Shown: positions 5,618 through 50,536, counted from the stretch's first letter. The stretch: DNA of 64,000 nt from Candidatus Daviesbacteria bacterium (GCA_030699125.1 JAUYKM010000009.1:6358-70357), one strand, 5' to 3'. Notes: generated by a model not told the origin, from the sequence alone. Numbers and translations are program-made.

Positions 5618-7222
5618 ATGAAATGGAAAGTATTACCCAAAAAGTCCGATGATTTAGTGGAGCAGTTACTGGCAAACAGGGGAATTAAAACTACTCAAGA
5701 AAAAGAGCAATTTTTTCATCCCAAAATTTCAGATTACGAGAAGGATATTGATATTGCCGGAATAAAAAAGGCACAGGAAAGAATAAAAAAAGCAATAAAA
5801 AATAATGAACTAATTATTGTTTATGGAGATTATGATGTAGATGGAATATGCGGCTGCGCTTGTCTTTATAAAGCACTAACTTCAATTGGAGCAAAAGTTT
5901 TGCCTTATATTCCACATAGAGAAAAAGAAGGATATGGATTATCAAAAATAGGATTGGAGTCGGCTAAAAATTCTGGCGCCCGGTTAATAATAACTGTTGA
6001 TAATGGCATAGTTGCCAATCCTCAAGCAGACTATGCAAAAATTTTAGGCCTGGATTTAATTATTACTGATCACCATATTCCGGCAAAAATTAAACCGGAC
6101 GCTTATGAAATAATTCATTCTACCAAGATGTGTGGAGCCGCTGTTGGTTGGTGTCTTATCCGAGGATTAATAAAAAAGGATTTGGCAACAGAATTGTTGC
6201 AATTTGTTTGCCTTGCCACCATCTGTGATGTGATGCTTCTTTTGGAAGTTAATAGAGCATATGTTTCGGAAGGTTTGAAAATTTTAAACCGGACAACTAA
6301 TTTAGGATTATTATCTTTAATCAATGAATCAGGATTAAGACTTGGGAATATTGGTTCTTATGAGATAGGTCACGTTTTAGGGCCAAGATTGAATGCTATG
6401 GGAAGATTGGAAAATGCCATGGATTCATTAAGACTTCTTTGCACCAAAGATCCTCAAAGGGCCAGAAATTTGGCAAGACTTTTGTGTAAGACTAATACCA
6501 GTCGCCAAAAAATGACCGAAGAAGCAGTTGAAGAAGCACATGTTTTAGTGAATAAAGGAATCAGTGTACAGGTATTACATTCTAAAAAATGGTCCATGGG
6601 AATTGTGGGACTGATTGCTGGAAGAATTGCCGAAAGCTACTCTCGTCCTACCATAGCAATTTCAGTGGGAGAAACTGTTGCTAAGGGATCAGCCAGATCT
6701 GTTAATGGAGTAAATATAGTTGAGTTTATCAGAAATTTTTCCGATATTTTAATTGATGTGGGAGGGCATCCGCAAGCTGCTGGTTTTTCGCTGGAGTCTA
6801 AAAATGTGACAATCTTTAAAAGAAGAGTAGAAGAATATATTTTGGAATTACCTGAAGAAGGAGAAAAAGTTTTAGAAATAGATGCAGAAGTTGAAACTAA
6901 ACAAATTAGTAAGGGTTTAATTGAACAGATATCTAAGTTTGAACCATTTGGTGTTAAAAATCCTAGGCCCATTTTTGCAACTTATAAAATGCAAATTTCA
7001 GATATTAGAACAGTAGGATTGGGGAAACATCTAAAGTTTAAAGCGAATAATATAGACGCTATTGCCTTTGGCATGGGGGAGATGGAATCGCTACTGGCTA
7101 ATGGGCAGCAAATTCACCCTGAGCGAAGTCGAAGGGTAGATTTGGCTTATACACCAGAAATTGATAGTTACAATGATTTTGAAAAACTACAACTAAAAGT
7201 AAAGGATATTCGCATTAGTTAA
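5618..7222 (+). CDS. recJ: Single-stranded-DNA-specific exonuclease RecJ (DHH/DHHA1)
   Basis: DHH motifs YGDYDVDG and ITDHH, plus a DHHA1 GGH motif. The track ORF starts at 5546 and overlaps cca, so I prefer the internal start MKWKVLPKK at 5618. Confidence 0.8.
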   Translation: MKWKVLPKKSDDLVEQLLANRGIKTTQEKEQFFHPKISDYEKDIDIAGIKKAQERIKKAIKNNELIIVYGDYDVDGICGCACLYKALTSIGAKVLPYIPHREKEGYGLSKIGLESAKNSGARLIITVDNGIVANPQADYAKILGLDLIITDHHIPAKIKPDAYEIIHSTKMCGAAVGWCLIRGLIKKDLATELLQFVCLATICDVMLLLEVNRAYVSEGLKILNRTTNLGLLSLINESGLRLGNIGSYEIGHVLGPRLNAMGRLENAMDSLRLLCTKDPQRARNLARLLCKTNTSRQKMTEEAVEEAHVLVNKGISVQVLHSKKWSMGIVGLIAGRIAESYSRPTIAISVGETVAKGSARSVNGVNIVEFIRNFSDILIDVGGHPQAAGFSLESKNVTIFKRRVEEYILELPEEGEKVLEIDAEVETKQISKGLIEQISKFEPFGVKNPRPIFATYKMQISDIRTVGLGKHLKFKANNIDAIAFGMGEMESLLANGQQIHPERSRRVDLAYTPEIDSYNDFEKLQLKVKDIRIS

Positions 7223-7500: not shown

Positions 7501-7605
7501 CTTAAATTTTGCAAAAGGTTTTAAATAAACCTTATGACAAAACGCCTCCCTTCCGGGAAGTAATAATTCCAATAATTTGTATACTTTTATTTTTCACGTT
7601 TTTAG

Positions 7606-20769: not shown

Positions 20770-21039
20770 ATGTATAGACCAAAAAATACACAAGAACGAA
20801 TTACTCATCGGTTACAGATTGCCCAGGGACATCTTAAAAAGGTTCTTAATATGGTGGAAAACGGGGAATATTGTATTGATGTAATCCATCAATCCCAGGC
20901 AGTCCAGGCAGCTTTGAAGGAGGCAGATTCTTTGGTTTTGGAAAACCACCTGAAAGGTTGTGTGGTTGACCATATTAAAAAAGGTGAATCAGATGCGTCT
21001 ATTGCAGAAATCATGAATGTTTTTAAGAAAAACAAATAA
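20770..21039 (+). CDS. csoR: CsoR/RcnR-family metal-sensing transcriptional repressor
   Basis: RLQIAQGHLKKVLNMVENGEYCIDVIHQSQAVQAALKEA...HLKGCV matches the DUF156 CsoR helix bundle, with the Cys-His-Cys ligand positions present. Confidence 0.75.
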   Translation: MYRPKNTQERITHRLQIAQGHLKKVLNMVENGEYCIDVIHQSQAVQAALKEADSLVLENHLKGCVVDHIKKGESDASIAEIMNVFKKNK

Positions 21040-23867: not shown

Positions 23868-26165
23868 TTGCATCTAAATATGGCAGAAATAAAGAAAACA
23901 TTTCCCATAAAGGGTATGTACTGTGCATCATGTGTACGGGTTTTGGAGAAATCCTTAAGTAGAGTTGAGGGTATTTCTAATTGTGTAGTAAATCTGACAA
24001 CAGAGACAGCAAGTGTTACATATGATCCAAAAAAAGTGACAGATAATGATTTGGTATCTGCTGTGGCGAATGTTGGCTACAAAGCAGGGTTGGAGAGTGA
24101 GTTAAAAACAGAAGATCAGCAAAAAATAGAGAAGGAAAAAGAACTAAAAGATTTACGAAATAAAGTTATTATCAGTTTATTTTTGGGGGCATTAATTCTT
24201 TGGGGAAGCTTTCCGGGTCTTATGAATATTGCCCCACTTTTTTTAATAAACTCATGGGTACAACTGCTTTTAGCGATACCGGTTCAATTTTGGGCAGGCT
24301 GGGAATTTTACAGGGCTACAATTCCTGCCCTGCGACACAGAACTGCCAATATGGACACACTGGTGGCCATAGGTACTACCGTTGCTTTTTCCTATTCCGC
24401 TGTCGTGACTATTTTTCCTCAACTGGTGGAAAGTATTGGAGTAAAACCAGAGCCCTACTTTGATGTTTCCACTATTATTATCGGATTAATTTTACTAGGA
24501 AGATATTTTGAAGCCAAAGCTAAAGCAGGTACTTCAGAGGCTATTAAAAAGTTAATAGGTCTGCAGGCTAAAACTGCCAGGGTGGTAAGGAATGGCTCGG
24601 AAGTAGATATCCCGATAGATCAGGTAGTGATTGGAGATACTATCAGGGTCAGGCCAGGTGAAAAAATTTCGGTTGACGGAGAAATTTTAGAGGGTCAGTC
24701 ATCTATTGATGAGTCCATGGTAACAGGAGAAAGTATCCCGGTTGATAAGGTTAAAGGCGATTTGGTAATTGGTGCCACTATCAACAAAACAGGAACCTTT
24801 TTATATAAAGCCACCAAAGTGGGAGCAGATACAATGCTTTCACAAATTATTAAATTGGTACAAGAGGCTCAAGCCAGCAAAGCCCCGATACAAAGATTGG
24901 CTGATTTAATTTCTTCATATTTTGTACCGGTAGTTTTAATTTTGGCCATTGCTACATTTGTAGTTTGGTATGTAATTGGTCCTGCCCCTTCATTTTTGTA
25001 TGGTTTGCTTAATATGGTGGCTGTTTTAATAATTGCCTGTCCTTGTGCCATGGGCTTGGCAACTCCAACAGCTATTATGGTGGGTACAGGAATTGGGGCG
25101 AACAAAGGAATATTGATTAAGGATGCTCAAAGTTTGGAAACTGCTCATAAAATAAACACTGTTATTTTTGATAAAACAGGGACATTAACTAAGGGAAAGC
25201 CGGAGGTGACCGACGTTGTTCCATTCGTCATTGCGAGGAGGAACGCGACGAAGCAATCTTCCAAATCAAGATTGCCACGCGAACTAAAGTTCGCTCGCAA
25301 TGATGTTTTGGTATTAGCAGCATCTTTGGAAAAGGGATCAGAACATTCTTTAGCAGAGGCAATTGTTAATAAAGCCGAGCAAGAAGCACTTAACTTCAGC
25401 AAAGTCGAAGCATTTAAAGCCATTCCAGGGCATGGGGTAGAAGGTATTGTTGATGGGAGAAAAGTGGTTCTGGGAAATAGAAAGTTGCTGGAAAAGAATG
25501 ATGTTGACTTTACTCCGATTATTCGAATAATTGAACAACTGGAAAATGAAGGCAAGACAGTGATGATGTTGACCGTGGATGGGAAATTAGCAGGCCTTAT
25601 TGCTGTGGCTGATACTATTAAAGAGACTGCCAAAGAAGGAGTGGAAGCGCTCTATAAAAAAGGGATAGAGGTAGTTATGATTACCGGAGACAACCAGAGA
25701 ACTGCCAATGCTATTGCTAAAAAGCTGGGTATAAAAAGAGTTTTGGCAGAAGTTTTGCCTGATCAAAAAGAGGCGGAAGTAAAAAAGATTCAGACAGAAG
25801 GAAAGAAAGTAGCTATGGTGGGAGATGGAATAAATGATGCTCCGGCTTTGGCTGCTGCAGATGTTGGGATTGCCATGGGTACTGGAACTGATGTGGCCAT
25901 AGAGTCGGCAGGAATTACCTTGATAAATAAAGATTTAACATCTGTGGTATCAGCAATAGAGCTTTCCAAAAAAACCATGAGAACAATAAAACTAAACCTT
26001 TTTTGGGCTTTTGGTTATAATATTATATTAATACCGGTTGCTATGGGAGCGCTCTATCCATTTTTCCATATACTTTTAAATCCAATCTTTGCTTCAGTTG
26101 CTATGGCATCCAGTTCTATATCTGTAGTTTCAAATTCACTGCTTTTAAAAAGGGTTAAACTATGA
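23868..26165 (+). CDS. copA: Copper-translocating P1B-type ATPase
   Basis: N-terminal [16 protein letters not shown] motif [18 protein letters not shown] and [10 protein letters not shown]. Carries a 78-bp in-frame GC-rich palindromic insertion at 25227-25304. Confidence 0.9.
25227..25304 (+). repeat. Two inverted copies of palindromic mini-element family A inserted in frame in copA
   Basis: GTCATTGCGAGGAGGAACGCGACGAAGCAATC and, inverted, GATTGCCACGCGAACTAAAGTTCGCTCGCAATGAT. Matches 55996-56028 and 56173-56198. Confidence 0.7.
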
Positions 26166-27181
26166 TTAATTTGTGGCTCATATTTATAACCGGTTTAACT
26201 GTTGGGGGCTTAACTTGTCTGGCAGTGCAGGGAGGACTTTTGGCCTCAATTATTGCGGCCAGGGAAGAAGATGATATCGAACGCGGTAACAGGCGTAAAC
26301 ACACACTCTGGGCAACAATTGCCTTTCTAGTAACTAAGTTGATTGTTTATACTTTTTTAGGTTTTATCCTGGGGGCTTTTGGAGGGGCATTAAATATTTC
26401 TCCCAAAGTCCAGATTGCCATGCAATTTTTAGCAGGACTATATATGGCTTTCATTGCGCTAGATTTGTTAAAAGTCCACCCTATCTTTAGATACGTAGTC
26501 ATCCAGCCCCCCAGATTTTTAACCAGGATAGTAAGGAATCAATCCAGGAGTAAGGATCTTTTTGCCCCGGCCGCTTTAGGTGCTATGACAATTTTTATTC
26601 CTTGTGGTACAACTTTGGCAATGGAGGCTTTGGCAATCTCATCCGGTAATGCAATTTTGGGTGCAGCAGTTATGTTTTTCTTTGTTTTGGGCACTATACC
26701 TGTATTTTTTGGGGTGGGTTTTTTAACCACAATATTGGGTGATAATTTTCAGGGCAGATTTTTAAAAATTGCAGGGCTGACTGTACTTTATTTAGGTGTT
26801 ATCTCAGCAAATGGCGCTTTAGTTGCAGCAGGATCACCTGTTAGCTTGCCATCTATAACAATTGACCTAAGTGGCAATGGTAGATATTCAGCGCAGAACC
26901 AGATTGATATTTCCGTTGCACAAAACCCCCAAATTACTATTACATCTTCCGGCTACAGCCCAAACTATATCAGAGTAAGGCAAGGTAAAACAGTCAACTT
27001 AACGCTTAAAAGTATCAATGCTTTCAGCTGTGCTTTAGCTTTTAGGATTCCCTCTTTGGGCATCAGTAAGAATCTGCAGCCAAATGATGTGCAGCAAATC
27101 AGCTTTGTTCCCACTCAACCAGGCCAAATCCCATTTAGCTGCTCTATGGGGATGTATCGGGGGGTGATTGAGGTAATATGA
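26162..27181 (+). CDS. Polytopic membrane protein fused to a C-terminal cupredoxin-like domain
   Basis: About 6 TM with a conserved Cys in TM1 ([11 protein letters not shown]). The C-terminal soluble domain ends in [12 protein letters not shown]. Confidence 0.45.
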
Positions 27182-27396
27182 GGAAGAGAAAATTCAAAAT
27201 TACGGATATGCACTGTAGCTCTTGTGCTTTAACCATAGATTTGGATTTGGAAGATTTGGAGGGAGTGAAATTTGCCAGGACCAGTTATGCAAAAGGAGAA
27301 ACTGAAATAGAATTTGATTCTGAAAAAATTACTGATCAAGTTATTTCAGAAACTATCAAAAAATCAGGCTATTCTGCAATTCCTCTTGAAACTTAA
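27178..27396 (+). CDS. copZ: Heavy-metal-associated (HMA) copper chaperone
   Basis: 72 aa with a ferredoxin-like HMA fold. Metal-binding loop MHCSSC. Confidence 0.75.
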   Translation: MRKRKFKITDMHCSSCALTIDLDLEDLEGVKFARTSYAKGETEIEFDSEKITDQVISETIKKSGYSAIPLET

Positions 27397-30729: not shown

Positions 30730-30945
30730 ATGTTAAATAGATTTTTAGAGTTTTTTATTGTCGGACTTATCTTAGGGGTTCTAGAGGATTTGATTGCCAT
30801 TTCACTGGCCACAGAGAAAGAGATTGATTTAAGAGTGTTCGTGATCGCCTTTTTTGTGGCATTTCCTTTCGCTGTTTTTTCAGAATTAATTGTAGATCAT
30901 GATAAATTTAGAAAATTAATGAGTAGGTGGTTTAAACGATCTTAA
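30730..30945 (+). CDS. Small hypothetical membrane protein
   Basis: 71 aa with two hydrophobic helices. Confidence 0.3.
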   Translation: MLNRFLEFFIVGLILGVLEDLIAISLATEKEIDLRVFVIAFFVAFPFAVFSELIVDHDKFRKLMSRWFKRS

Positions 30946-31091
30946 CAGAATTCACAGGCCGCTTTTGGTTGGTCTTTTCTGTTACAACAGGTTGAGCAGC
31001 AATATTCATTTCCTTCTTTAGTATATGACTGACCCGGCTTGATAACTTTGCCGCACCTGTGACATCTATGTTCTTTGGTGTCTTTGGCCAT
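30942..31091 (-). CDS. 49-aa Cys-rich YHS/TRASH-like metal-binding mini-protein
   Basis: MAKDTKEHRCHRCGKVIKPGQSYTKEGNEYCCSTCCNRK... follows the CxxCG..I...Y..G..Y.FCS..C pattern of YHS/TRASH domains. Lies directly downstream of the P-type ATPase on the same strand. Not in the ORF track. Confidence 0.45.
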   Translation of the reverse strand: MAKDTKEHRCHRCGKVIKPGQSYTKEGNEYCCSTCCNRKDQPKAACEFC

Positions 31092-31153
31092 ACTTTTGAT
31101 AGTAAACTAAATAAATAATTTCTGTCAACCACGTTCATGTAAACTGAACGTGG

Positions 31154-33721
31154 TCAACTTTTTCTAAATAGATTAAAGATAGGTGTGACAACGAGCATAC
31201 GCATAATAAATAGTAAGAATATACCTACTCCCAAAAGTAGTCCCCAATCCATAAGAGTTAATGGATGGACTTTAAAAAGTTGCTGTAAAGTTACCCCGGC
31301 GAAGGAGATTGGCAGATACAAAATTAAAAGTTGTAAGATCAGGGAACCTGTTATTGCCAAGACTAGAAATGGATTGGAGAAAAAGGGTAGTTTGTACTCT
31401 GAGCGGATGGCTACAATCCTTAACATTTCATAAAAAACAATGGCGGTAAAAACCATAGTTTGTTCATAAATGGGATCTTTTTGATAGATAAAGAAGATCA
31501 AAAGAATCGCAATGGTCAAAAGAACACTAACCGCCATTAATGGTCCTAAAAATCTGCCTCCGGCAATTTCTTCCCTGAATTTTTGCGGGGGAAGATCCAT
31601 AATATTTTTTCTGGGTGGATCAACCCCCAAAGCTATGGCTGGTAAACCATCAGTGACTAAATTAATCCATAAAAGGTGAATTGGCAAAAGCGGTAGATGT
31701 CCTCCTCCTAAAATAACTGCCAAAGATATGACCAAAACTTCCATGATATTTGAAGAGAGTAAATAATTAACAAATTTTCTGATGTTATCAAAAATGGCCC
31801 TACCCTCTTTGATAGCCTCAACAATTGTCGAGAAATGATCATCCAGTAAGACCATATCAGAGGCTTCTTTGGCCACATCTGTCCCGGTAATACCCATGGC
31901 TACCCCAATATCAGCAGCCTTTAGGGCTGGAGCATCATTAACCCCATCTCCTGTCATGGCCACCTGGTGCCCGTGTGCTTTCAAAGCTTTAATAATTCTG
32001 ATTTTGTGTTCCGGGTTAACTCTGGCATAAATTGCAATTTGCTCCACCTGCTCTTTTAATGCTTCATCGGATAATTTATCCAAGTCTTGACCGGTGATAT
32101 TTTTACCCTCAATGCCAATTTGGCTGGCAATAGCCTGCGCAGTTAAGAGATGATCACCTGTGATCATAACCACCCTGATTTGCGCCTGTTTCTGACAAAC
32201 CTCGATTGCCTGTTTCACCCCTTCTCTTGGTGGATCAATCATCCCGACAAGCCCTAAGAATGTGAGGTTTTCTTCTTTTTCGGAAGAACCATAAGCAATA
32301 GCCAATACTCTTAAAGCTTTCCTGGCCATTTCATCATTTGCTTTAAGAATCTTCATCTTTTGCTCCTCAGTCAAATTTGAACACTTTCCCAAAATAACTT
32401 CAGTGGCCCCCTTACTAATTAATATTTGCCCTTCTTTGTTTTTTACTATTACTGACATCATCTTTCTGTCAGAAGAAAAAGGGATCTCAGAAATTCTTTG
32501 ATAAGTTTTTAAAATTGTTTCTTGGTTTAAACCCGAATCTACGGCTGCCTGAATTAAGGCAGCCTCTGTTGAATCACCAATTATTTGGCCCGCTTCGCCG
32601 CGAGGCGAGCCCCCATTTATTCTGGCATTAGAGGCAAGTAAACCAAAGGTTAAGATTTTTTCTTTATTCTCCCCGAAGATCTCTGTTACCTTCATTACCC
32701 CTTCAGTTAAAGTTCCTGTTTTATCAACGCAAATTACATCTGTTGATCCCAGTGTTTCTGCAGCTGCCAAATGTCTAATCAGAGATTTTTGTTTAAGTAG
32801 TCTCCTGGTTCCTAAGGCTAGGGAAATAGTCACCACCACCGGTAATCCTTCCGGAATAGCTGCTACAGCTAAAGCTATAGCCGAAATTAAAGAATCGAGT
32901 ACATTTTGTCCAAACCCAGTCTGACTGGGTCCAAACAAAAATTGTTCAATTCCAATTAAAGCTGCAATAACAAGTACAATCCTGCCAATTAATTTGCCCA
33001 GATTGTTAAGTTTAAGCTGTAAAGGAGTGGGTGGTTCTATCTCTTGGGAAACCAAATGGGCAATTTTACCAATCTCAGTGCTCATACCTGTGGATATGAC
33101 AATGCCGATACCTCGACCCGCAGCAATGTTGGTACCTGAAAAAAGCATATTTTTCCGCTCAGCCAAAATTACATCTTCAGCTAAAGTGTCAGGATCTTTA
33201 GTCACCGGAGTCGACTCCCCGGTGAGTGAGGCTTCATTAGTTTCCAGACTAAAGGCTTGAATAATTCTAATATCAGCAGGAATTTTTTGTCCTTCCTCTA
33301 AAACAATCAAATCGCCGGGTACTAAATTGGAACTGGCAACCTGCTGGATCACTCCGTCTCTGTAAATACTGGCTTGAACCGTCACCAGTTTTTTAAGCTG
33401 TTTGATAGTTTTTTCAACCCTGTATTCCTGGATAAAACCGACAATGCCGTTTAAAATAACAATTGCCAAAATCAAGGCTGCATCTAAAGTTTCGCCCAAA
33501 ATAAGAGATACTGAAGAGGCTATTAGCAGAATAATAATAAGAAAGCTTCTAAATTGAGAAAAGAAAATCTGAAAAGCACTTTTACCTTTTTCCTCTTGTA
33601 AAATATTTAGACCATATTTTGTAAGTCTTTTTTCTGCCTCTTGAGCTGTTAAGCCTTTTTGTTGATCAGTTTGTAGTTCTTGTATGGTCTGCTCAACTGA
33701 TTTCAGATATGCCTTTTCCAC
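31154..33721 (-). CDS. P2-type cation-transporting ATPase (Ca2+/Mg2+-type)
   Basis: TGES, ICVDKTGTLT, PEGLP (type II hallmark) and MTGDGVNDAPALK. Contains a 29-bp GC-rich in-frame insertion encoding GGSPRGEAGQ. Confidence 0.85.
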   Translation of the reverse strand: MEKAYLKSVEQTIQELQTDQQKGLTAQEAEKRLTKYGLNILQEEKGKSAFQIFFSQFRSFLIIILLIASSVSLILGETLDAALILAIVILNGIVGFIQEYRVEKTIKQLKKLVTVQASIYRDGVIQQVASSNLVPGDLIVLEEGQKIPADIRIIQAFSLETNEASLTGESTPVTKDPDTLAEDVILAERKNMLFSGTNIAAGRGIGIVISTGMSTEIGKIAHLVSQEIEPPTPLQLKLNNLGKLIGRIVLVIAALIGIEQFLFGPSQTGFGQNVLDSLISAIALAVAAIPEGLPVVVTISLALGTRRLLKQKSLIRHLAAAETLGSTDVICVDKTGTLTEGVMKVTEIFGENKEKILTFGLLASNARINGGSPRGEAGQIIGDSTEAALIQAAVDSGLNQETILKTYQRISEIPFSSDRKMMSVIVKNKEGQILISKGATEVILGKCSNLTEEQKMKILKANDEMARKALRVLAIAYGSSEKEENLTFLGLVGMIDPPREGVKQAIEVCQKQAQIRVVMITGDHLLTAQAIASQIGIEGKNITGQDLDKLSDEALKEQVEQIAIYARVNPEHKIRIIKALKAHGHQVAMTGDGVNDAPALKAADIGVAMGITGTDVAKEASDMVLLDDHFSTIVEAIKEGRAIFDNIRKFVNYLLSSNIMEVLVISLAVILGGGHLPLLPIHLLWINLVTDGLPAIALGVDPPRKNIMDLPPQKFREEIAGGRFLGPLMAVSVLLTIAILLIFFIYQKDPIYEQTMVFTAIVFYEMLRIVAIRSEYKLPFFSNPFLVLAITGSLILQLLILYLPISFAGVTLQQLFKVHPLTLMDWGLLLGVGIFLLFIMRMLVVTPIFNLFRKS
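32587..32615 (+). repeat. GC-rich mini-element (CGAGGCGAG family) inserted in frame in the P-type ATPase
   Basis: GGCCCGCTTCGCCGCGAGGCGAGCCCCC within AT-rich coding sequence. The same core appears at 14669-14683 and 52861-52890. Confidence 0.6.
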
Positions 33722-33784: not shown

Positions 33785-34060
33785 ATGGAAGAAGAAGTAC
33801 AACCCAAGCCAATTTTTCTGCCGGTTATTTCTGATGAGACCAGGCAATATCTTTTAGAAGAACTCGGATTGGATAAAGATGAAAAGACCCGACAGATAGT
33901 CTCCAGTCTAACCGGCGAAAGAGGTGTAAACCCTTATATGGCCATAGATGATTGGATGATGTCGGTATTCAGTAGACTGGCTGATTACAATAAAGCATTT
34001 GTGGAGATTCTAAGTTCAGTATTAGAAAAAAGATATGTGAATGTTAATGGGGGGGGGTGA
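33785..34060 (+). CDS. Hypothetical protein; may be the 5' part of a gene split at a G9 tract
   Basis: Ends VNGGG* inside GGGGGGGGG (34049-34057). Confidence 0.35.
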   Translation: MEEEVQPKPIFLPVISDETRQYLLEELGLDKDEKTRQIVSSLTGERGVNPYMAIDDWMMSVFSRLADYNKAFVEILSSVLEKRYVNVNGGG

Positions 34061-34458
34061 TAGGTGATTATGCAGACGCAGCTTCAAAAGGGATGGCAGT
34101 TGTCGTACAAGCTTATCAGATTGACAGCGGCAGAAACTTATTTTCCCGAGTACAAGATTTAAGTGAGGAAGATCTGTCTGAAATGGGAAAAATTATGGAA
34201 GAGGTTATCCTACCAACTAACACAGATGTATCTCTTCTGAGGCGTGTCCTAAGCACTCCCAGAATTCCTGAACAGCATCTAAATTTGATATATTGTGTTA
34301 ATAAAACTGCAGAAGGAGCAATAGCCTTAGATGATAGAGAATTCAAAGAGGGAGCAGCGGCTATGTTCAGAATACTTTCTTACTTAGCCCCAAAACTATA
34401 CCCAAATCCTTCACAAACTCCGGAGCAACCTCTACCGCCTCCCTCAACAAATCCATAA
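34057..34458 (+). CDS. Hypothetical protein; may be the 3' part of a gene split at a G9 tract
   Basis: GTG start inside the G-run. Frame offset relative to the upstream ORF. Confidence 0.35.
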   Translation: MIGDYADAASKGMAVVVQAYQIDSGRNLFSRVQDLSEEDLSEMGKIMEEVILPTNTDVSLLRRVLSTPRIPEQHLNLIYCVNKTAEGAIALDDREFKEGAAAMFRILSYLAPKLYPNPSQTPEQPLPPPSTNP

Positions 34459-34561
34459 AACGAACTATCCAACATGGGAGGTTGATTAGGTTGACACCTA
34501 GGGAAAATTTTACTACCATTTTCTTATTGACTCTTGAAGGGGACGGTCCTGAGGTTTATTG

Positions 34562-35236
34562 TTATATCAATCTAAACTTAGCATTCTTTTTATATCTTCT
34601 TCTCAAATATTTCTTTTGGGCTCTGGTTGAAAATTTATTCGTTCCCAAAACCGCCTCTTCCTTTTCAAATAATTTTTCAATTTCTGAGAAATCTTGTTTA
34701 AGCCCATCATAAATAAATTTTTCATATTGTTTTTGCGACTTTTTTGTTTCTCCAACCAGACGGATGATATCTTCATCAAGGAAATAAAGCGATTCTTGAC
34801 CCACAGCCTCTCTGATACTGCTATATGGATATTTCATTGGGTCCTTAATTAGCCCTGCTTTGACTGGATTGAGATAAATGTATTGAGAAAGCTGGATAAA
34901 ATAAGGATCGCTTTCAATTAGAATACTTTTAAACCTATTTTGAAAAACAGGACCATAGTGATTATAAGTACGGTTAAAATACATGGAATAACTGGTTGTT
35001 AGGGAGGACATAATTTTTGAGATGGGGATTTTACGAGTATGGATAGAGATATGAAAGTGGTTTGGTATCAGACAAAAAGCGTATATGGAATGGTCATATT
35101 TACTTTTTAAACGATAAAGCTTATTTAAGAAAAAATGATAATCTGCCTCTTTTAGAAATACAGGCTGCTTATTAATACCCCTATTAAAAACATGATAAAA
35201 AGCATTTTCAAAAACAAATCTTGGCCCTCTAGGCAT
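34562..35236 (-). CDS. Y1 HUH tyrosine transposase, IS200/IS605 TnpA-like or REP-associated (RAYT)
   Basis: HUH motif NHFHISI and catalytic Tyr in YIYLNP. Flanked by inverted GGGACGGTCC hairpin repeats at 34529-34553 and 35283-35300. Confidence 0.7.
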   Translation of the reverse strand: MPRGPRFVFENAFYHVFNRGINKQPVFLKEADYHFFLNKLYRLKSKYDHSIYAFCLIPNHFHISIHTRKIPISKIMSSLTTSYSMYFNRTYNHYGPVFQNRFKSILIESDPYFIQLSQYIYLNPVKAGLIKDPMKYPYSSIREAVGQESLYFLDEDIIRLVGETKKSQKQYEKFIYDGLKQDFSEIEKLFEKEEAVLGTNKFSTRAQKKYLRRRYKKNAKFRLI

Positions 35237-35337: not shown

Positions 35338-36108
35338 GTGAATATTTTTGAAGTGCTGGCTCATGAAGGGGAAGAAGTTGTCGAGGTAGTTGTTCTCAGA
35401 CTGGATGAGGTTATCCGTACTAACTCCATCAACTATACTATCTGGGCTTTTGTGGCTCTGGCTGCTTTGACTTTTTTATCAATTATCTTAAAAAGATGGC
35501 CCTCTTTGAGGATTTTTTTATTTTTAGGCTTTATTCTGGTAATTCTTGGCAATACTCTTTACTTAATTGGTTCCACTCTTTATTTAAATAAGGAGTCTCA
35601 GAGCGGCGGTCCTGTTCACTATCATGCAGATTTTGAAATATATAGATGTGGACAGAAAATTGATTTGAAGGATCCTGAAGGATTATCCAATAAAGTAGGT
35701 ACCAATGTTATTCATGAGCATGGAGATGACAGGATTCACATAGAAGGAGTGCTTTTGGATAAACATGATGCCTCTTTAGGTCATTTTTTTGCAGAATTGG
35801 GGGGGAGTATGGATGGGAATCATCTTACTGTATCAACTAACAAAAGTCTTCTGACTTTACAAAATGGAGACTTATGCAACGGCCGGCCGGCGCTCTTCCA
35901 AGTTTTTGTTTATCAAACCAAAGGTGAACGTTATTTCCAGCAAAAAATAACTGAAAACCCGGAAGATTATATTATTTCTCCTGAGGGTAACATTCCACCG
36001 GGTGATTGTGTAATTTTAGAATTAGATGCTCTTAAAGACAGAACAGATAAATTGTGTGAACAATACTTATTAAAGAAGGAGACTGGAGAAATTAACAATG
36101 GGAATTGA
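35338..36108 (+). CDS. His-rich membrane-anchored protein, possible metal-binding protein
   Basis: Two TM, then HYHADFEIYRCG...HEHGDDRIHIEG. Confidence 0.4.
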   Translation: MNIFEVLAHEGEEVVEVVVLRLDEVIRTNSINYTIWAFVALAALTFLSIILKRWPSLRIFLFLGFILVILGNTLYLIGSTLYLNKESQSGGPVHYHADFEIYRCGQKIDLKDPEGLSNKVGTNVIHEHGDDRIHIEGVLLDKHDASLGHFFAELGGSMDGNHLTVSTNKSLLTLQNGDLCNGRPALFQVFVYQTKGERYFQQKITENPEDYIISPEGNIPPGDCVILELDALKDRTDKLCEQYLLKKETGEINNGN

Positions 36109-36808
36109 AATACATTTGCCAACTCTGGGACTGGTGGCAGGATCTGCTGCCATTGATTCAATAAACCCTTGTGCCATAGGGGTGTTGATTTTGATGATTT
36201 CTGTAATTATGGCCGGAAAAAAATCTTTGCAGAGAATGCTATTTTTGGGAAGTTTGTATATTTTTTCTATTTTTATTACCTATCTTCTGGCAGGCCTAGG
36301 AATACTTTATTTTTTGGCATCAATCCCTCTTTTTGTAACAGAATATTTATCGATCGGAGTAGGAGGATTAATAATCCTTTTTGGATTGGTGGAAATCAAA
36401 GATTTTTTCTGGTACCAAAAAGGTTTTTCTCTGGGGGTTCCCACAGTTTTTACAGATAAGATTCACAGACTTGCTTATAATACTACTGTTCCCGGAGTAA
36501 TGCTTTTGGGGGCATTTGTGGCAGGAGTAGAACTGCCTTGTACCGGAGCACCGTATCTGGCTATCATCACGGTTTTATCGCTTAATTTTAATATGGCAGC
36601 CTTTTTGATGCTGATTTTATACAATATTATTTTTGTTCTACCGCTTATTGTCATCCTACTTCTTGTGGCTGGCGGATTAAAACTTCATATAGTAAAGAAA
36701 TGGAAACAGGAAGCAAGAGGGTTAATGAGACTGGCCATAGGGTTACTGTTGGTTGGTTTAGGCTGGTTGCTAATTTTGATTGCCAATGGGACAATTAATT
36801 TTGGATAA
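36098..36808 (+). CDS. CcdA/DsbD-family thiol-disulfide transmembrane protein
   Basis: SINPCAIGV and LPCTGAPYL intramembrane Cys motifs in a 6-TM protein. Confidence 0.55.
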   Translation: MGIEIHLPTLGLVAGSAAIDSINPCAIGVLILMISVIMAGKKSLQRMLFLGSLYIFSIFITYLLAGLGILYFLASIPLFVTEYLSIGVGGLIILFGLVEIKDFFWYQKGFSLGVPTVFTDKIHRLAYNTTVPGVMLLGAFVAGVELPCTGAPYLAIITVLSLNFNMAAFLMLILYNIIFVLPLIVILLLVAGGLKLHIVKKWKQEARGLMRLAIGLLLVGLGWLLILIANGTINFG

Positions 36809-36810
36809 AC

Positions 36811-37080
36811 ATGACACATATTGTTAAGAGAAAAGGACATCTGCAGGAGTTTGATGATAGAAAAATATACGGTTCGGTTTATGCTGCTTGTTTAGCATCT
36901 CATACAGATGAGGAGATGGCAGAAGCCACAGCCAATTTGGTAACTAAAGAAGTAAAACAGTGGATGGGAGATAAGAATCAAGTCACTAGCCACGAAATTT
37001 TTAATAAAGTAACTGATGAGTTGGAACACTTAAATAAAGAAGCTGCCTTTATGTATAAAACCCACCGGGATTTGTCTTAG
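36811..37080 (+). CDS. Stand-alone ATP-cone domain protein
   Basis: VKRKGHLQEFDDRKI...EEMAEATANLVTKEV matches the ATP-cone (NrdR/RNR N-terminal) fold. 89 aa. Confidence 0.55.
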   Translation: MTHIVKRKGHLQEFDDRKIYGSVYAACLASHTDEEMAEATANLVTKEVKQWMGDKNQVTSHEIFNKVTDELEHLNKEAAFMYKTHRDLS

Positions 37081-39575: not shown

Positions 39576-39741
39576 TCGTAGCAGAAAACCCCGCTTTCTT
39601 AAAGCGGGGTTGAATGCGTAGCGATTACAGCCTTCCGCGGATGGGCACGGTGGTATATCAAATTAAGGTTTTCTGCTACTTCTTGTAAACTTATTAAAGA
39701 AAACCGCGGACTTACAAATCGCGGAAGTTTATACTGGTAGT

Positions 39742-49737: not shown

Positions 49738-50508
49738 ATATCCGCAGGTGTCAATACAGATACACCCCAAGGGTGTACATACAATATAAACTTTACTCCT
49801 CCTCCAACAACTGATGTTTTATTAGTTCTAACTTTTGGGCGTATTCCACACGTTCAAGAACAAATTCCTTATAATCTTCGGGGGATTTAAAAAAATTTAG
49901 GATTTCTTCTTTAGCGCAAAAGCCATCTTTTACCAGTCCAACATATTCCGGATATGAAGACCAACGATAATCTTTTAAATCCTTCACTAGAAGTGATGCA
50001 ATCGGGTTTAAGTGAATATAACGTGAGACATGAATTAACTGTTCATCAGATTCAATTAAAACAGCTTTGAATTCCCCCTGTAATAAAGGCCCAACTCTTC
50101 TGTACTTAACATTGTAGTATTTGGTATAGCTATTGCTAAGTTTACTGATAAATTCAGTAATTCCGCCATCTTTAAGTTGTCTAATAAGAAGATGGAAATG
50201 GTTTGGCATTAGACAATAGCAGATAATGTCCACGATTTTTTTGTTTGAATCGGGTTTAATAATAGAATTTGGTGAGAATCTGGAGAATCTTGGCTTGGGT
50301 CCTAATAATTGGTAATAGGTGATCGTCTTAATAAATCTTGAATAATCCCAATTTTTTTCAAATATTCTTCTTTTCTCTACACCTCGGTTATAAATATGGT
50401 AAAAATGACCGTTAACAAATGGAAAAATTCTGGAAGGCATTTGAACCTATCGTACTCTCAATATCCGCAGGTGTCAATACAAAAACACCCCAAGGGTGTA
50501 CATACAAT
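49738..50508 (-). mobile_element. IS200/IS605-like element: a Y1 transposase flanked by 48-bp near-identical direct subterminal repeats carrying a GTACACCC-AA-GGGTGTAC hairpin
   Basis: Repeats at 49738-49785 and 50461-50508 differ at 3 positions. Same-strand hairpins at both ends fit the IS200/IS605 LE/RE architecture. Confidence 0.6.
49793..50440 (-). CDS. Y1 HUH tyrosine transposase (IS200/IS605 TnpA or RAYT-like)
   Basis: HUH motif NHFHLLI and catalytic Tyr in YIHLNP. Paralog of the 34562..35236 gene. Confidence 0.7.
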   Translation of the reverse strand: MPSRIFPFVNGHFYHIYNRGVEKRRIFEKNWDYSRFIKTITYYQLLGPKPRFSRFSPNSIIKPDSNKKIVDIICYCLMPNHFHLLIRQLKDGGITEFISKLSNSYTKYYNVKYRRVGPLLQGEFKAVLIESDEQLIHVSRYIHLNPIASLLVKDLKDYRWSSYPEYVGLVKDGFCAKEEILNFFKSPEDYKEFVLERVEYAQKLELIKHQLLEEE

Positions 50509-50536
50509 GTCAGATAAGGTTTGTTAGAATGGGCAC

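Follow-up and report, generated by a model that had tools for sequence, protein, structure and literature searches.

The known regulators of SERCA are transmembrane micropeptides, and we know of no soluble Cys-rich partner protein described for the P2A Ca2+-ATPases. Among small metal-binding treble clefs, the TRASH signature, reportedly set out by Ettema and colleagues in 2003, is said to read C-x2-C-x19-22-C-x3-C. Small dispersed repeats (SDRs) of 21-27 nt are said to have been described in heterocystous cyanobacteria by Elhai and colleagues in 2008 (cited in PMC3116915). Repetitive extragenic palindromic (REP) elements, as presented in one account, carry at one end an unpaired, conserved tag, GTAG or CGTC, and the same account includes intragenic REPs (PMC3733652). 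Here we analyze a gene junction in a 64,000-nucleotide stretch of DNA from Candidatus Daviesbacteria bacterium (GCA_030699125.1 JAUYKM010000009.1:6358-70357; hereafter the window, with positions counted from its first letter), at which a minus-strand mini-gene for a 49-residue Cys-rich protein and a palindrome lie downstream of a P-type ATPase gene. We consider it probable that two separate things meet at this junction: a conserved mini-gene for an eight-Cys protein, which belongs to a cation/thiol-redox module, and an inserted copy of a dispersed palindrome.

Results

A Conserved Family of Eight-Cysteine Mini-Proteins

The open reading frame (ORF) of the mini-gene occupies positions 30942..31091 on the minus strand and translates, exactly as the original prediction from the sequence had it, into the 49-residue peptide MAKDTKEHRCHRCGKVIKPGQSYTKEGNEYCCSTCCNRKDQPKAACEFC. 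The distance of 62 nt given there between the TGA stop codon of the ATPase gene (31154-31156) and the ATG of the mini-gene (31089-31091) also agrees with the coordinates. The public collection has no called gene whose product is exactly this peptide; a word-indexed search of proteins, with the 49-residue peptide as its only query, gave no match, and a peptide scan of genome contigs gave no confirmed relative. An exhaustive HMMER scan of 1.84e9 representatives found six small relatives, and profile searches raised the number to 16 and then to 75 proteins. Each of these is a stand-alone protein of 42-71 residues; the wider profile search revealed no domain fusion among the 75, and none of them carries a precomputed Pfam domain. 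The hosts are bacteria of the candidate phyla radiation (CPR) and DPANN archaea, among which Daviesbacteria, Terrybacteria, Giovannonibacteria, Uhrbacteria, and Aenigmarchaeota are named, and one member (P0004) is labelled Candidatus Limnocylindrales by its source name.

Family alignments single out eight invariant Cys residues (C10, C13, C31, C32, C35, C36, C46, and C49). By the strictest count, C10, C13, G14, K15, C35, C46, E47, and C49 are invariant, I17, K18, G20, C31, C32, C36, and F48 are nearly so, and Y30 is invariant or nearly invariant. The resulting signature is CxxCGKxIK...YCCxxCC...CEFC, and a C-terminal C-E-[FL]-C closes every family member. In comparison with its closest relative, the Daviesbacteria orthologue in L011 (related loci and contigs are given by L numbers), the mini-gene has a ratio of nonsynonymous to synonymous substitution rates (dN/dS) of 0.31/1.79 = 0.17.

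The Mini-Gene Has Its Own Promoter

A promoter scan identified a -35 hexamer, TTGACA (31128-31123, minus strand), and a -10 hexamer, TACTAT (31104-31099), separated by 18 nt and together matching the consensus at 10 of 12 positions. Between the end of the -10 hexamer and the ATG are 7 nt that contain no Shine-Dalgarno sequence, and the first T of the -35 hexamer is also the last base of the right arm of the palindrome. Every homologue examined (L002-L007, L009, L011, L031, and L135) is preceded by the same layout (TTGAC[A/T/G], N17-18, TAnnnT, and then 6-11 nt to the ATG). It falls inside the 3' coding end of the ATPase gene where the mini-gene trails the ATPase by 10-24 nt (L007, L009, L011, and L135), and it is also kept where the ATPase gene and the mini-gene are divergent. 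We conclude from this geometry that the mini-gene has its own sigma-70-type promoter and would be transcribed independently of the upstream ATPase gene. Because the -10 hexamer ends 7 nt before the ATG and no Shine-Dalgarno sequence intervenes, the mRNA is probably leaderless, or nearly so. Ribosomal-protein genes in related contigs also have a -10 hexamer 6-11 nt before the start codon and no Shine-Dalgarno sequence; the pattern, noted for these genes and the mini-gene in the window, L096, L099, L114, and L135, suggests that leaderless mRNAs are widespread in these CPR lineages.

The Mini-Gene Is Linked to a Ca-Type Pump and Thiol-Redox Genes

The gene that precedes the mini-gene (31154..33721, minus strand) encodes an 855-residue P-type ATPase. 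Its assignment to the PEGLP-type (P2) pumps in the original prediction is borne out by the sequence AIPEGLP in M4 and by its P2 set of Pfam domains (Cation_ATPase_N, E1-E2, Cation_ATPase, Hydrolase, and Cation_ATPase_C). The best NCBIfam models are Ca-ATPases (PMR1-type TIGR01522, 726 bits; PMCA-type TIGR01517, 517.5 bits against a cutoff of 507), and the best PDB match is LMCA1 of Listeria (3.6e-168), followed by SPCA1 and SERCA. The protein also contains SSNIMEV in M5, INLVTDGLP in M6, and FYEML in M8, and its ion-site residues are presumably SERCA-like, by our own reading of the PDB alignment against textbook SERCA numbering. As judged by these domains and motifs, the pump belongs to the P2A (Ca-type) P-type ATPases.

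We compared 14 distinct mini-gene contexts and found that the mini-gene stands beside a P2A ATPase gene in 11 of them, so the pairing with a P2 pump recurs in relatives. The ATPase gene and the mini-gene are co-directional, in that order, in the window, in L011 (Daviesbacteria), and in L007/8, L009/10, and L135/6; they are divergent in L002-L005, L134, and L031; and L006, L133, and L132 have no ATPase gene. The ATPases adjacent to mini-genes are 44-82% identical to that of the window, the highest value being that of L011. Another 78 ATPase loci, from other phyla, all lack the mini-gene.

The most constant neighbor, found in 13 of the 14 contexts, is a protein of 234-236 residues of the SfLAP family, which looks CcdA/DsbD-like because it has two 'PC' motifs. 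Its gene is usually accompanied by genes for a membrane-anchored Cys/His-rich protein of 240-265 residues and for an 89-residue stand-alone ATP-cone. In the window these three partner genes lie on the plus strand and encode a 256-residue protein that we call p256 (35338..36108), the 236-residue SfLAP/CcdA-like protein (36098..36808), and the ATP-cone protein (36811..37080); partner genes are also found near the mini-gene in L002-L005, L007, L009, L011, L031, L133, and L134. The order of the genes varies. In Terrybacteria, the mini-like gene is the first of a p256-SfLAP-ATP-cone operon, and in L006, which has no ATPase gene, the mini-gene lies directly 5' of the SfLAP gene; in L133, also without an ATPase gene, an SfLAP-like gene is still adjacent. 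In Giovannonibacteria (L135:1836-6174), a VKOR-SfLAP-ATPase-mini operon has gaps of 10-19 nt, and a VKOR homologue replaces the 256-residue protein. As membership is conserved across CPR classes despite the rearranged order, we argue for a functional coupling of the mini-gene to a cation-pump/thiol-redox envelope module, in which the predicted mini-protein could act as a sensor, an adaptor, or a carrier of thiols or metal.

The Mini-Protein Resembles Treble-Clef Zinc Fingers

No Pfam or NCBIfam family reaches its threshold for the mini-protein, which the original prediction had described as YHS/TRASH-like. The YHS (PF04945), TRASH (PF08394), and L24e profiles gave zero matches by hmmscan at E <= 10 for the 17 members searched, the window peptide among them, and no Pfam LIM match was found among the same 17. 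What stands of that description is an L24e/TRASH-type motif, CxxCGxxIxPG...G..[YF]C[SC]..C, in the N-terminal 36 residues, together with weak matches to eL24 and ZMYM5; membership in a YHS or TRASH family is not supported. The prediction had hung on a domain match and on conservation of the ORF in relatives, and of these it is conservation, in about 75 relatives, that was found. The Cys spacing of the motif is C10-x2-C13-x18-C32-x3-C36, one residue short of the reported TRASH spacing. The best Pfam match is to the prokaryotic metallothioneins (Metallothio_Pro, PF02069), with 13.4 bits against a cutoff of 33 (E = 0.092) and residues 10-46 aligned to profile positions 9-44; only 2 of the 17 members match this profile, the better with E = 0.053.

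Comparisons with known structures point in the same general direction. The best PDB sequence match is eL24 (E = 0.02, sub-threshold), and the family profile finds the LIM finger of CRIP (E = 0.0019), HVO_2753, and several L24e chains (E ~0.05-0.1), all below significance. An AlphaFold2 model (pLDDT 75.8) has strands at residues 8-10, 23-26, and 29-32 and a helix at 33-36, which make up a knuckle, the beta-hairpin 23-26 / 29-32, and a short helix. Foldseek neighbors of this model are weak (E ~1-4): LIM domains at the top (E ~1, TM ~0.5), the zinc-binding domain of ClpX, and the TRASH domain of ZMYM5 (2das; E = 3.9, TM 0.50). Because the matches from PDB sequence, PDB profile, and Foldseek searches are all sub-threshold zinc fingers, we made no family assignment. 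The mini-protein most likely folds as an L24e/TRASH-like treble clef, with a CxxCG knuckle, a beta-hairpin, and a helix bearing CCxxCC, followed by the C-terminal CxxC. We read four Cys residues as additions to the TRASH/L24e core, namely the second members of the CC..CC pairs and the C-terminal CxxC. The eight Cys residues would probably form two tetrathiolate (Cys4) metal sites, LIM-like in their number of ligands; the metal at these predicted sites is most likely Zn, although a redox-active or other soft-metal center may be present instead. A split NrdR, composed of the mini-protein as zinc finger and the stand-alone ATP-cone, was also considered and had no sequence support.

Three other accounts of the mini-gene can be weighed against these data. 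If the ORF were spurious and the region only a 3' untranslated region or an intergenic spacer, its shortness and the lack of a called product would be explained, as would the presence of a longer, 68-residue ORF that overlaps it in another frame and starts at an ATG inside the palindrome. It is the longer ORF that is spurious, because the two other reading frames of the mini-gene region are full of stop codons in L011, and it is not conserved; 75 homologues with invariant Cys residues, the low dN/dS, and the conserved promoter have already refuted the idea of a spurious mini-gene, to which we attach practically no weight. We conclude from these comparisons that the mini-gene is a genuine conserved gene of an uncharacterized stand-alone family of about 75 members that has no Pfam model. 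A second account, modelled on the YHS/TRASH modules that work with P1B heavy-metal ATPases, would make the product a YHS/TRASH-domain metallochaperone or metal sensor that supplies the pump with a soft metal (Cu, Zn, or Cd) or regulates it. The motif CxxCGKxIKPG...G..YCC..C fits the L24e/TRASH pattern, its spacing is one residue off that reported for TRASH, eL24 is the best PDB sequence match, and the region contains HMA and DsbD_2-cupredoxin genes, with a P1B ATPase gene in L007. However, none of the 17 members has a YHS or TRASH match in Pfam, the four additional invariant Cys residues and the C-terminal CEFC are foreign to TRASH, and the mini-gene persists without the pump in L006 and L133. 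The adjacent pump, moreover, is of the Ca type, with O-ligand ion sites rather than those of a soft-metal pump, and for this reason a Cu-type chaperone is unlikely; we judge the account as a whole improbable. The third account, a metallothionein-like buffer of the SmtA/BmtA type that holds Zn or Cd in a thiolate cluster, draws on PF02069 as the best Pfam match, on a content of 9 Cys and 2 His in 49 residues, and on the metal-related genomic region. We give it a somewhat smaller chance still, as the match is far under the cutoff and confined to two members, just eight thiols are conserved, and residues that are not ligands (G14, K15, I17, K18, G20, Y30, E47, and F48) are strictly conserved in a protein with a defined hairpin fold in the AlphaFold2 model. 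Those residues and the beta-hairpin speak for a surface with a specific interaction and not for a sponge. In our view, then, the mini-protein is not a bulk metallothionein or a YHS chaperone of the Cu type.

A Palindrome Is Inserted between the ATPase Stop Codon and the -35 Hexamer

The core of the palindrome, ACCACGTTCA-TGTAAAC-TGAACGTGGT on the plus strand, is perfect and spans 27 nt (31128..31154). The pattern ACCACGTTCA-N7-TGAACGTGGT is unique in the window and had 0 matches in 100 shuffles. A 14-bp inverted repeat had been predicted here; it is real and unique, but only its inner 10 bp are perfect. The 14-bp arms are complementary at 12 of 14 positions, with 2 matches and 2 mismatches among the outer four (31124-31127 / 31155-31158), and the left outer arm contains the TGA of the ATPase gene, in accordance with the predicted overlap. 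Both outer mismatches become G-U pairs in the minus-strand RNA, which can form a 14-pair stem (-22.9 kcal/mol, z = -4.0).

On the minus strand, the junction reads GTTGAC|CACGTTCAGTTTACATGAACGTG|GTTGAC-A, a net gain of 29 bp with respect to relatives and a 6-bp direct repeat. The first GTTGAC (31158..31153) holds the ATPase stop codon and the second (31129..31124) overlaps the -35 hexamer; with these repeats the palindrome spans 31124..31158. In alignments, the palindrome is absent from the orthologous junctions of L011 (whose ATPase is 82% identical), L007, and L009, and in L011 the ATPase stop codon lies within the -35 hexamer itself. A search with a covariance model, with filters off, found one copy of the palindrome in the window and no copy, even a diverged one, across 408 kb of related loci; marginal matches at 20941 (a coincidence within coding sequence) and 39584 (an unrelated GC hairpin) were dismissed. 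The half-site of the palindrome had no excess of meaningful copies in the window, where its four 1-mismatch matches are unpaired.

Two other hairpins were noted in passing. At the equivalent ATPase/mini-gene junction position of L009 (5925-5950), an unrelated GC hairpin, GACCCCGATTAAATCGGGGT, abuts TTGACA (-TGACA), and an intergenic one, AAAACCCCGCTTT-CTT-AAAGCGGGGTT-GAAT, lies at 39584-39614 of the window. Hairpins may abut -35-like motifs (TTGA(C/A)) here more generally. In an independent Logan assembly of this genome, L001 (whose end, 7518-7551, corresponds to window positions 31123-31158) stops right after the palindrome and TTGACA, and several of the other contigs that carry the palindrome likewise end close to it; the palindrome seems to break short-read assemblies.

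The Palindrome Is Dispersed among Unrelated Loci

We found ACCACGTTCA-N7-TGAACGTGGT, with an identical stem and related loops, in 37 metagenome contigs (the L091-L127 set). Eight of the 37 represent a single orthologous site in another lineage (loops AGTTACT and similar, A-run/T-run flanks, crcB nearby), which we regard as an ordinary terminator and a chance match. The remaining contigs represent about 24 distinct sites, in samples that also gave mini-gene loci, and their loops have the consensus TG-N-R-AAC in both orientations. At eight sites, the palindrome lies in frame within the leader peptide of a type IV pilin, as a 30-nt insert that duplicates the Gly-Phe-Thr codons (e.g., MPNRSGFTTFMKTERG|FTLIELMVV), and neighboring pilin paralogues lack the insert. 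Other copies lie directly against the -35 boxes (TTGAC or TTTAC) of rplU, rpsP, and rplS.

Copy number varies at orthologous sites. The window has one copy and its relatives none, L116 has one copy and L123 three abutting copies with a 29-nt period (L123:8557-8641), and L096 has one (1096-1122) and L107 two (1247-1302), the second of which carries a compensatory change in the inner stem; L121 has copies at 6464-6490 and 7012-7038. Flanking direct repeats (GTTGAC, GGTTTTAC, G(G)TAAAC) are present at about two-thirds of the sites. Among 25 distinct copies, the flanks are variable (GTCA, TAAA, TTTT, and others) and lack the GTAG/CGTC tag; likewise, the palindrome has neither the copy number (tens to hundreds per genome) of REP elements and REPINs nor their flanking genes for REP-associated tyrosine transposases (RAYTs). 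Two RAYT-like genes are present in the window, and neither is flanked by the junction palindrome. A literature search for the palindrome sequence returned only primers and shRNAs, and a scan of viral contigs for the inner palindrome returned four unrelated chance hairpins. The dif/Xer sites, integron attC sites, CRISPR repeats, and DNA-uptake sequences were considered and dropped on the grounds of geometry, copy pattern, and the in-frame and tandem insertions. In its sequence and distribution, the palindrome behaves like a dispersed, very small REP-like or SDR-like unit, mobile or copy-pasted, with a target preference.

The original prediction had raised the question whether the palindrome is an operator or a terminator, and the evidence makes either unlikely. 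An operator would be the site of a dimeric regulator that binds the 10-7-10 repeat and controls the mini-gene, and perhaps a regulon of pilin and ribosomal-protein genes. The perfect dyad symmetry immediately beside a -35 hexamer, here and at rplU, rpsP, and rplS in other contigs, is what such a site would look like. The palindrome is nevertheless missing from the same promoter in the closest relatives (L011, L007, and L009), nor did the covariance model find it in any of the other mini-gene loci searched. Furthermore, its stems are 100% identical at unrelated loci, its loop occurs in both orientations, and target-like direct repeats, in-frame copies within coding sequence, and three abutting copies are all foreign to the behavior of an operator, which we accordingly hold to be very unlikely. 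A role as an intrinsic terminator, either for the ATPase gene or, in both directions, between the convergent units, is somewhat more likely and still improbable. The hairpin is stable and immediately follows the stop codon, the plus-strand version is followed by CAACTTTTT and was flagged as terminator-like by our scan, and several other copies have A-run/T-run flanks (L091, L092, and L095). On the ATPase (minus) strand, however, the stem lacks a trailing U-run (UGACAGAAAUUA) and was not called by the scan, the U-run being on the opposite strand; relatives do without the palindrome, and the identical sequence cannot be a terminator where it lies in pilin coding regions. As far as these comparisons go, the palindrome does not qualify as a conserved operator, nor as a canonical terminator for the ATPase gene.

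Other Features of the Region

A gene for a small membrane protein of 71 residues (30730..30945, plus strand) is convergent with the mini-gene, an arrangement kept in L007, L011, and L133. The stop codons of the two genes overlap by 4 nt (30942-30945), as they do in L007, so that a terminator would not fit between the two convergent units. In L009, the same overlap is with an MgtE-like gene. A terminator-like hairpin with a T-run (30956..30975, plus strand), detected by the pattern scan only, would serve the 183-residue and 71-residue protein genes and lies antisense inside the mini-gene. An Rfam scan of the window found two tRNAs only and no match at the ATPase/mini-gene junction.

Between the ATPase gene and the p256 gene, the window has a 1.6-kb segment (33785..35236) that contains two orphan ORFs, of 91 and 133 residues, and the first of the RAYT-like Y1 transposase genes (34562..35236, minus strand; NCBIfam REP_Tyr_transpos, 68.6 bits, below the 80-bit cutoff). 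The two ORFs have no counterpart in any related locus, and the ATPase and p256 genes adjoin in L011. Since the segment is absent from related loci, in which the flanking genes are adjacent, we regard it as a lineage-specific insertion. The second RAYT-like gene (49796..50446, minus strand; NF047646, 52.5 bits, below cutoff) is bracketed by direct repeats of about 47 bp (49740-49786 and 50463-50509) with the hairpin TACACCC-caa-GGGTGTA, and looks like an IS200/RAYT-type unit. At a distance of 4 kb from the mini-gene are genes for a DsbD_2-cupredoxin fusion protein and an HMA-domain protein (26162-27396), and the DsbD_2-cupredoxin/HMA genes of L007 have a P1B ATPase gene next to them, so a copper/heavy-metal module is part of the syntenic block of the mini-gene.

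Discussion

The course of events that we favor treats the mini-gene and the palindrome as independent. The mini-protein would be a soluble cytosolic partner of a cation/thiol-redox envelope module composed of the P2A Ca-type ATPase, the SfLAP/CcdA-like protein, and VKOR or the 256-residue ectoprotein, with or without the ATP-cone protein, and it would act as a metal- or thiol-dependent sensor or adaptor. Its gene would be read from its own promoter into a leaderless mRNA that is translated independently of the ATPase. In the lineage of the window, the 27-nt palindromic mini-element would have inserted at the GTTGAC of the -35 box, adding 29 bp and duplicating GTTGAC. Neither gene would have been damaged, because the stop codon of the ATPase gene is preserved in one GTTGAC and the -35 hexamer in the other. 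Any role that the palindrome has at present, for example as a hairpin at the 3' end of the ATPase mRNA or as an insulator before the promoter, would be secondary.

Several observations weigh against parts of this scheme. With respect to mobility, about a third of the palindrome copies lack a flanking direct repeat, and exact copies are rare (1 in the 64-kb window and 1-2 per contig of 0.1-1 Mb), unlike those of classical REPs. No transposase is linked to the palindrome, and no Y1 transposase was found in the palindrome-bearing loci. That copies recur just 5' of -35 boxes could be due to selection for a function and not to a target preference. With respect to the mini-protein, the ATPase has canonical hard-cation (Ca-type) ligands and hence no obvious use for a thiolate protein. 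Adjacency to the ATPase gene is not universal (L006, L132, and L133), and the partner could therefore be the SfLAP/VKOR pair; the linkage of mini-gene and ATPase gene could also be, in part, inherited synteny. Confidence in the AlphaFold2 model is only moderate, the similarities to known zinc fingers all fall below threshold (E 0.002-1), and the leaderless start is deduced from the geometry of the promoter.

What we regard as new, to a moderate degree, is a previously undescribed family of eight-Cys mini-proteins, probably treble clefs, with recurrent membrane-module partners, and an unusually small dispersed palindrome. More tentatively, and with less than even confidence, we propose that the palindrome ranks among the smallest mobile DNA elements and that the eight-Cys protein is an unrecognized soluble subunit or regulator of the pump/thiol-redox pair. 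Were this so, the palindrome would be an insertion of about 29-30 bp that targets GTT(N)AC-like sites in either orientation. That preference would account for its landing on -35 boxes and in the in-frame Gly-Phe-Thr codons of CPR pilin leaders, and, as the palindrome would regenerate its own target, tandem arrays could build up. The eight-Cys protein, for its part, would couple a Ca-type P2A ATPase to VKOR or p256 and to the CcdA-like SfLAP protein in CPR bacteria and DPANN archaea.

The tiny genomes of these organisms are rich in unannotated small genes, and one such family is defined here. Its ligand signature and its genomic partners (Ca-type pump, CcdA-like protein, and VKOR) provide a handle on the homeostasis of cations and thiols in the envelope of uncultured organisms. 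The palindrome illustrates that a tidy-looking 'operator' can be a passenger, as it sits on -35 boxes and in pilin leaders without breaking them, and it bears on the evolution of promoters and surface-protein genes, on breaks in assemblies, and on the minimum size of mobile or copy-pasted DNA.

Among described proteins, the TRASH/L24e treble clefs (eL24, YHS, MYM/zf-FCS, and the archaeal TRASH regulators) share with the mini-protein the CxxCG knuckle, the 'I-x-PG' sequence, the beta-hairpin of its model, the [YF]-C-x-x(x)-C at the start of the helix, four Cys residues at close to TRASH spacing, a small size, and metal-related gene neighborhoods. The mini-protein differs from them in its eight thiols, the product of the doubled CC..CC and the invariant C-terminal CEFC, in its lack of any TRASH, YHS, or L24e match in Pfam, in never being fused to other domains, and in being linked not to P1B pumps but to SfLAP/VKOR and a P2A pump of the Ca type. 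LIM domains, which provide the best Foldseek and profile matches, likewise have eight ligands, which in the mini-protein possibly form two consecutive tetrahedral sites. However, the mini-protein has about 40 residues where a LIM domain has about 55, its ligands are all Cys, its sites would share adjacent cysteines (CC..CC), its hosts are prokaryotes, and the similarity is below significance. The metallothioneins SmtA and BmtA (PF02069), the best Pfam match, are also small and Cys/His-rich, with a treble-clef core like that predicted for the mini-protein; set against them, the mini-protein scores 13.4 of the required 33 bits, has fewer ligands, and conserves surface residues that are not ligands. 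The neighboring pump itself resembles the bacterial P2A Ca2+-ATPases (LMCA1 and the relatives of SERCA and SPCA) in domains, motifs, and, presumably, ion-site residues.

The palindrome, for its part, invites comparison with two kinds of dispersed repeat. Like REP elements and REPINs with their RAYTs, it is a palindrome of 20-40 nt that is dispersed and often located just after genes, and the window contains two RAYT-like genes. In contrast to them, it has no GTAG/CGTC tag, a very low copy number, and perfect 10-bp stems, it occurs in frame in pilin leaders and between flanking direct repeats, and it does not flank the RAYT-like genes. The SDRs of cyanobacteria are reportedly also mobile-looking repeats of less than 30 nt that are present or absent at orthologous sites; the palindrome differs from them in its sequence, its host phylum, and its targets, with insertions at GTT(N)AC that include -35 boxes and the G|FT codons of pilins.

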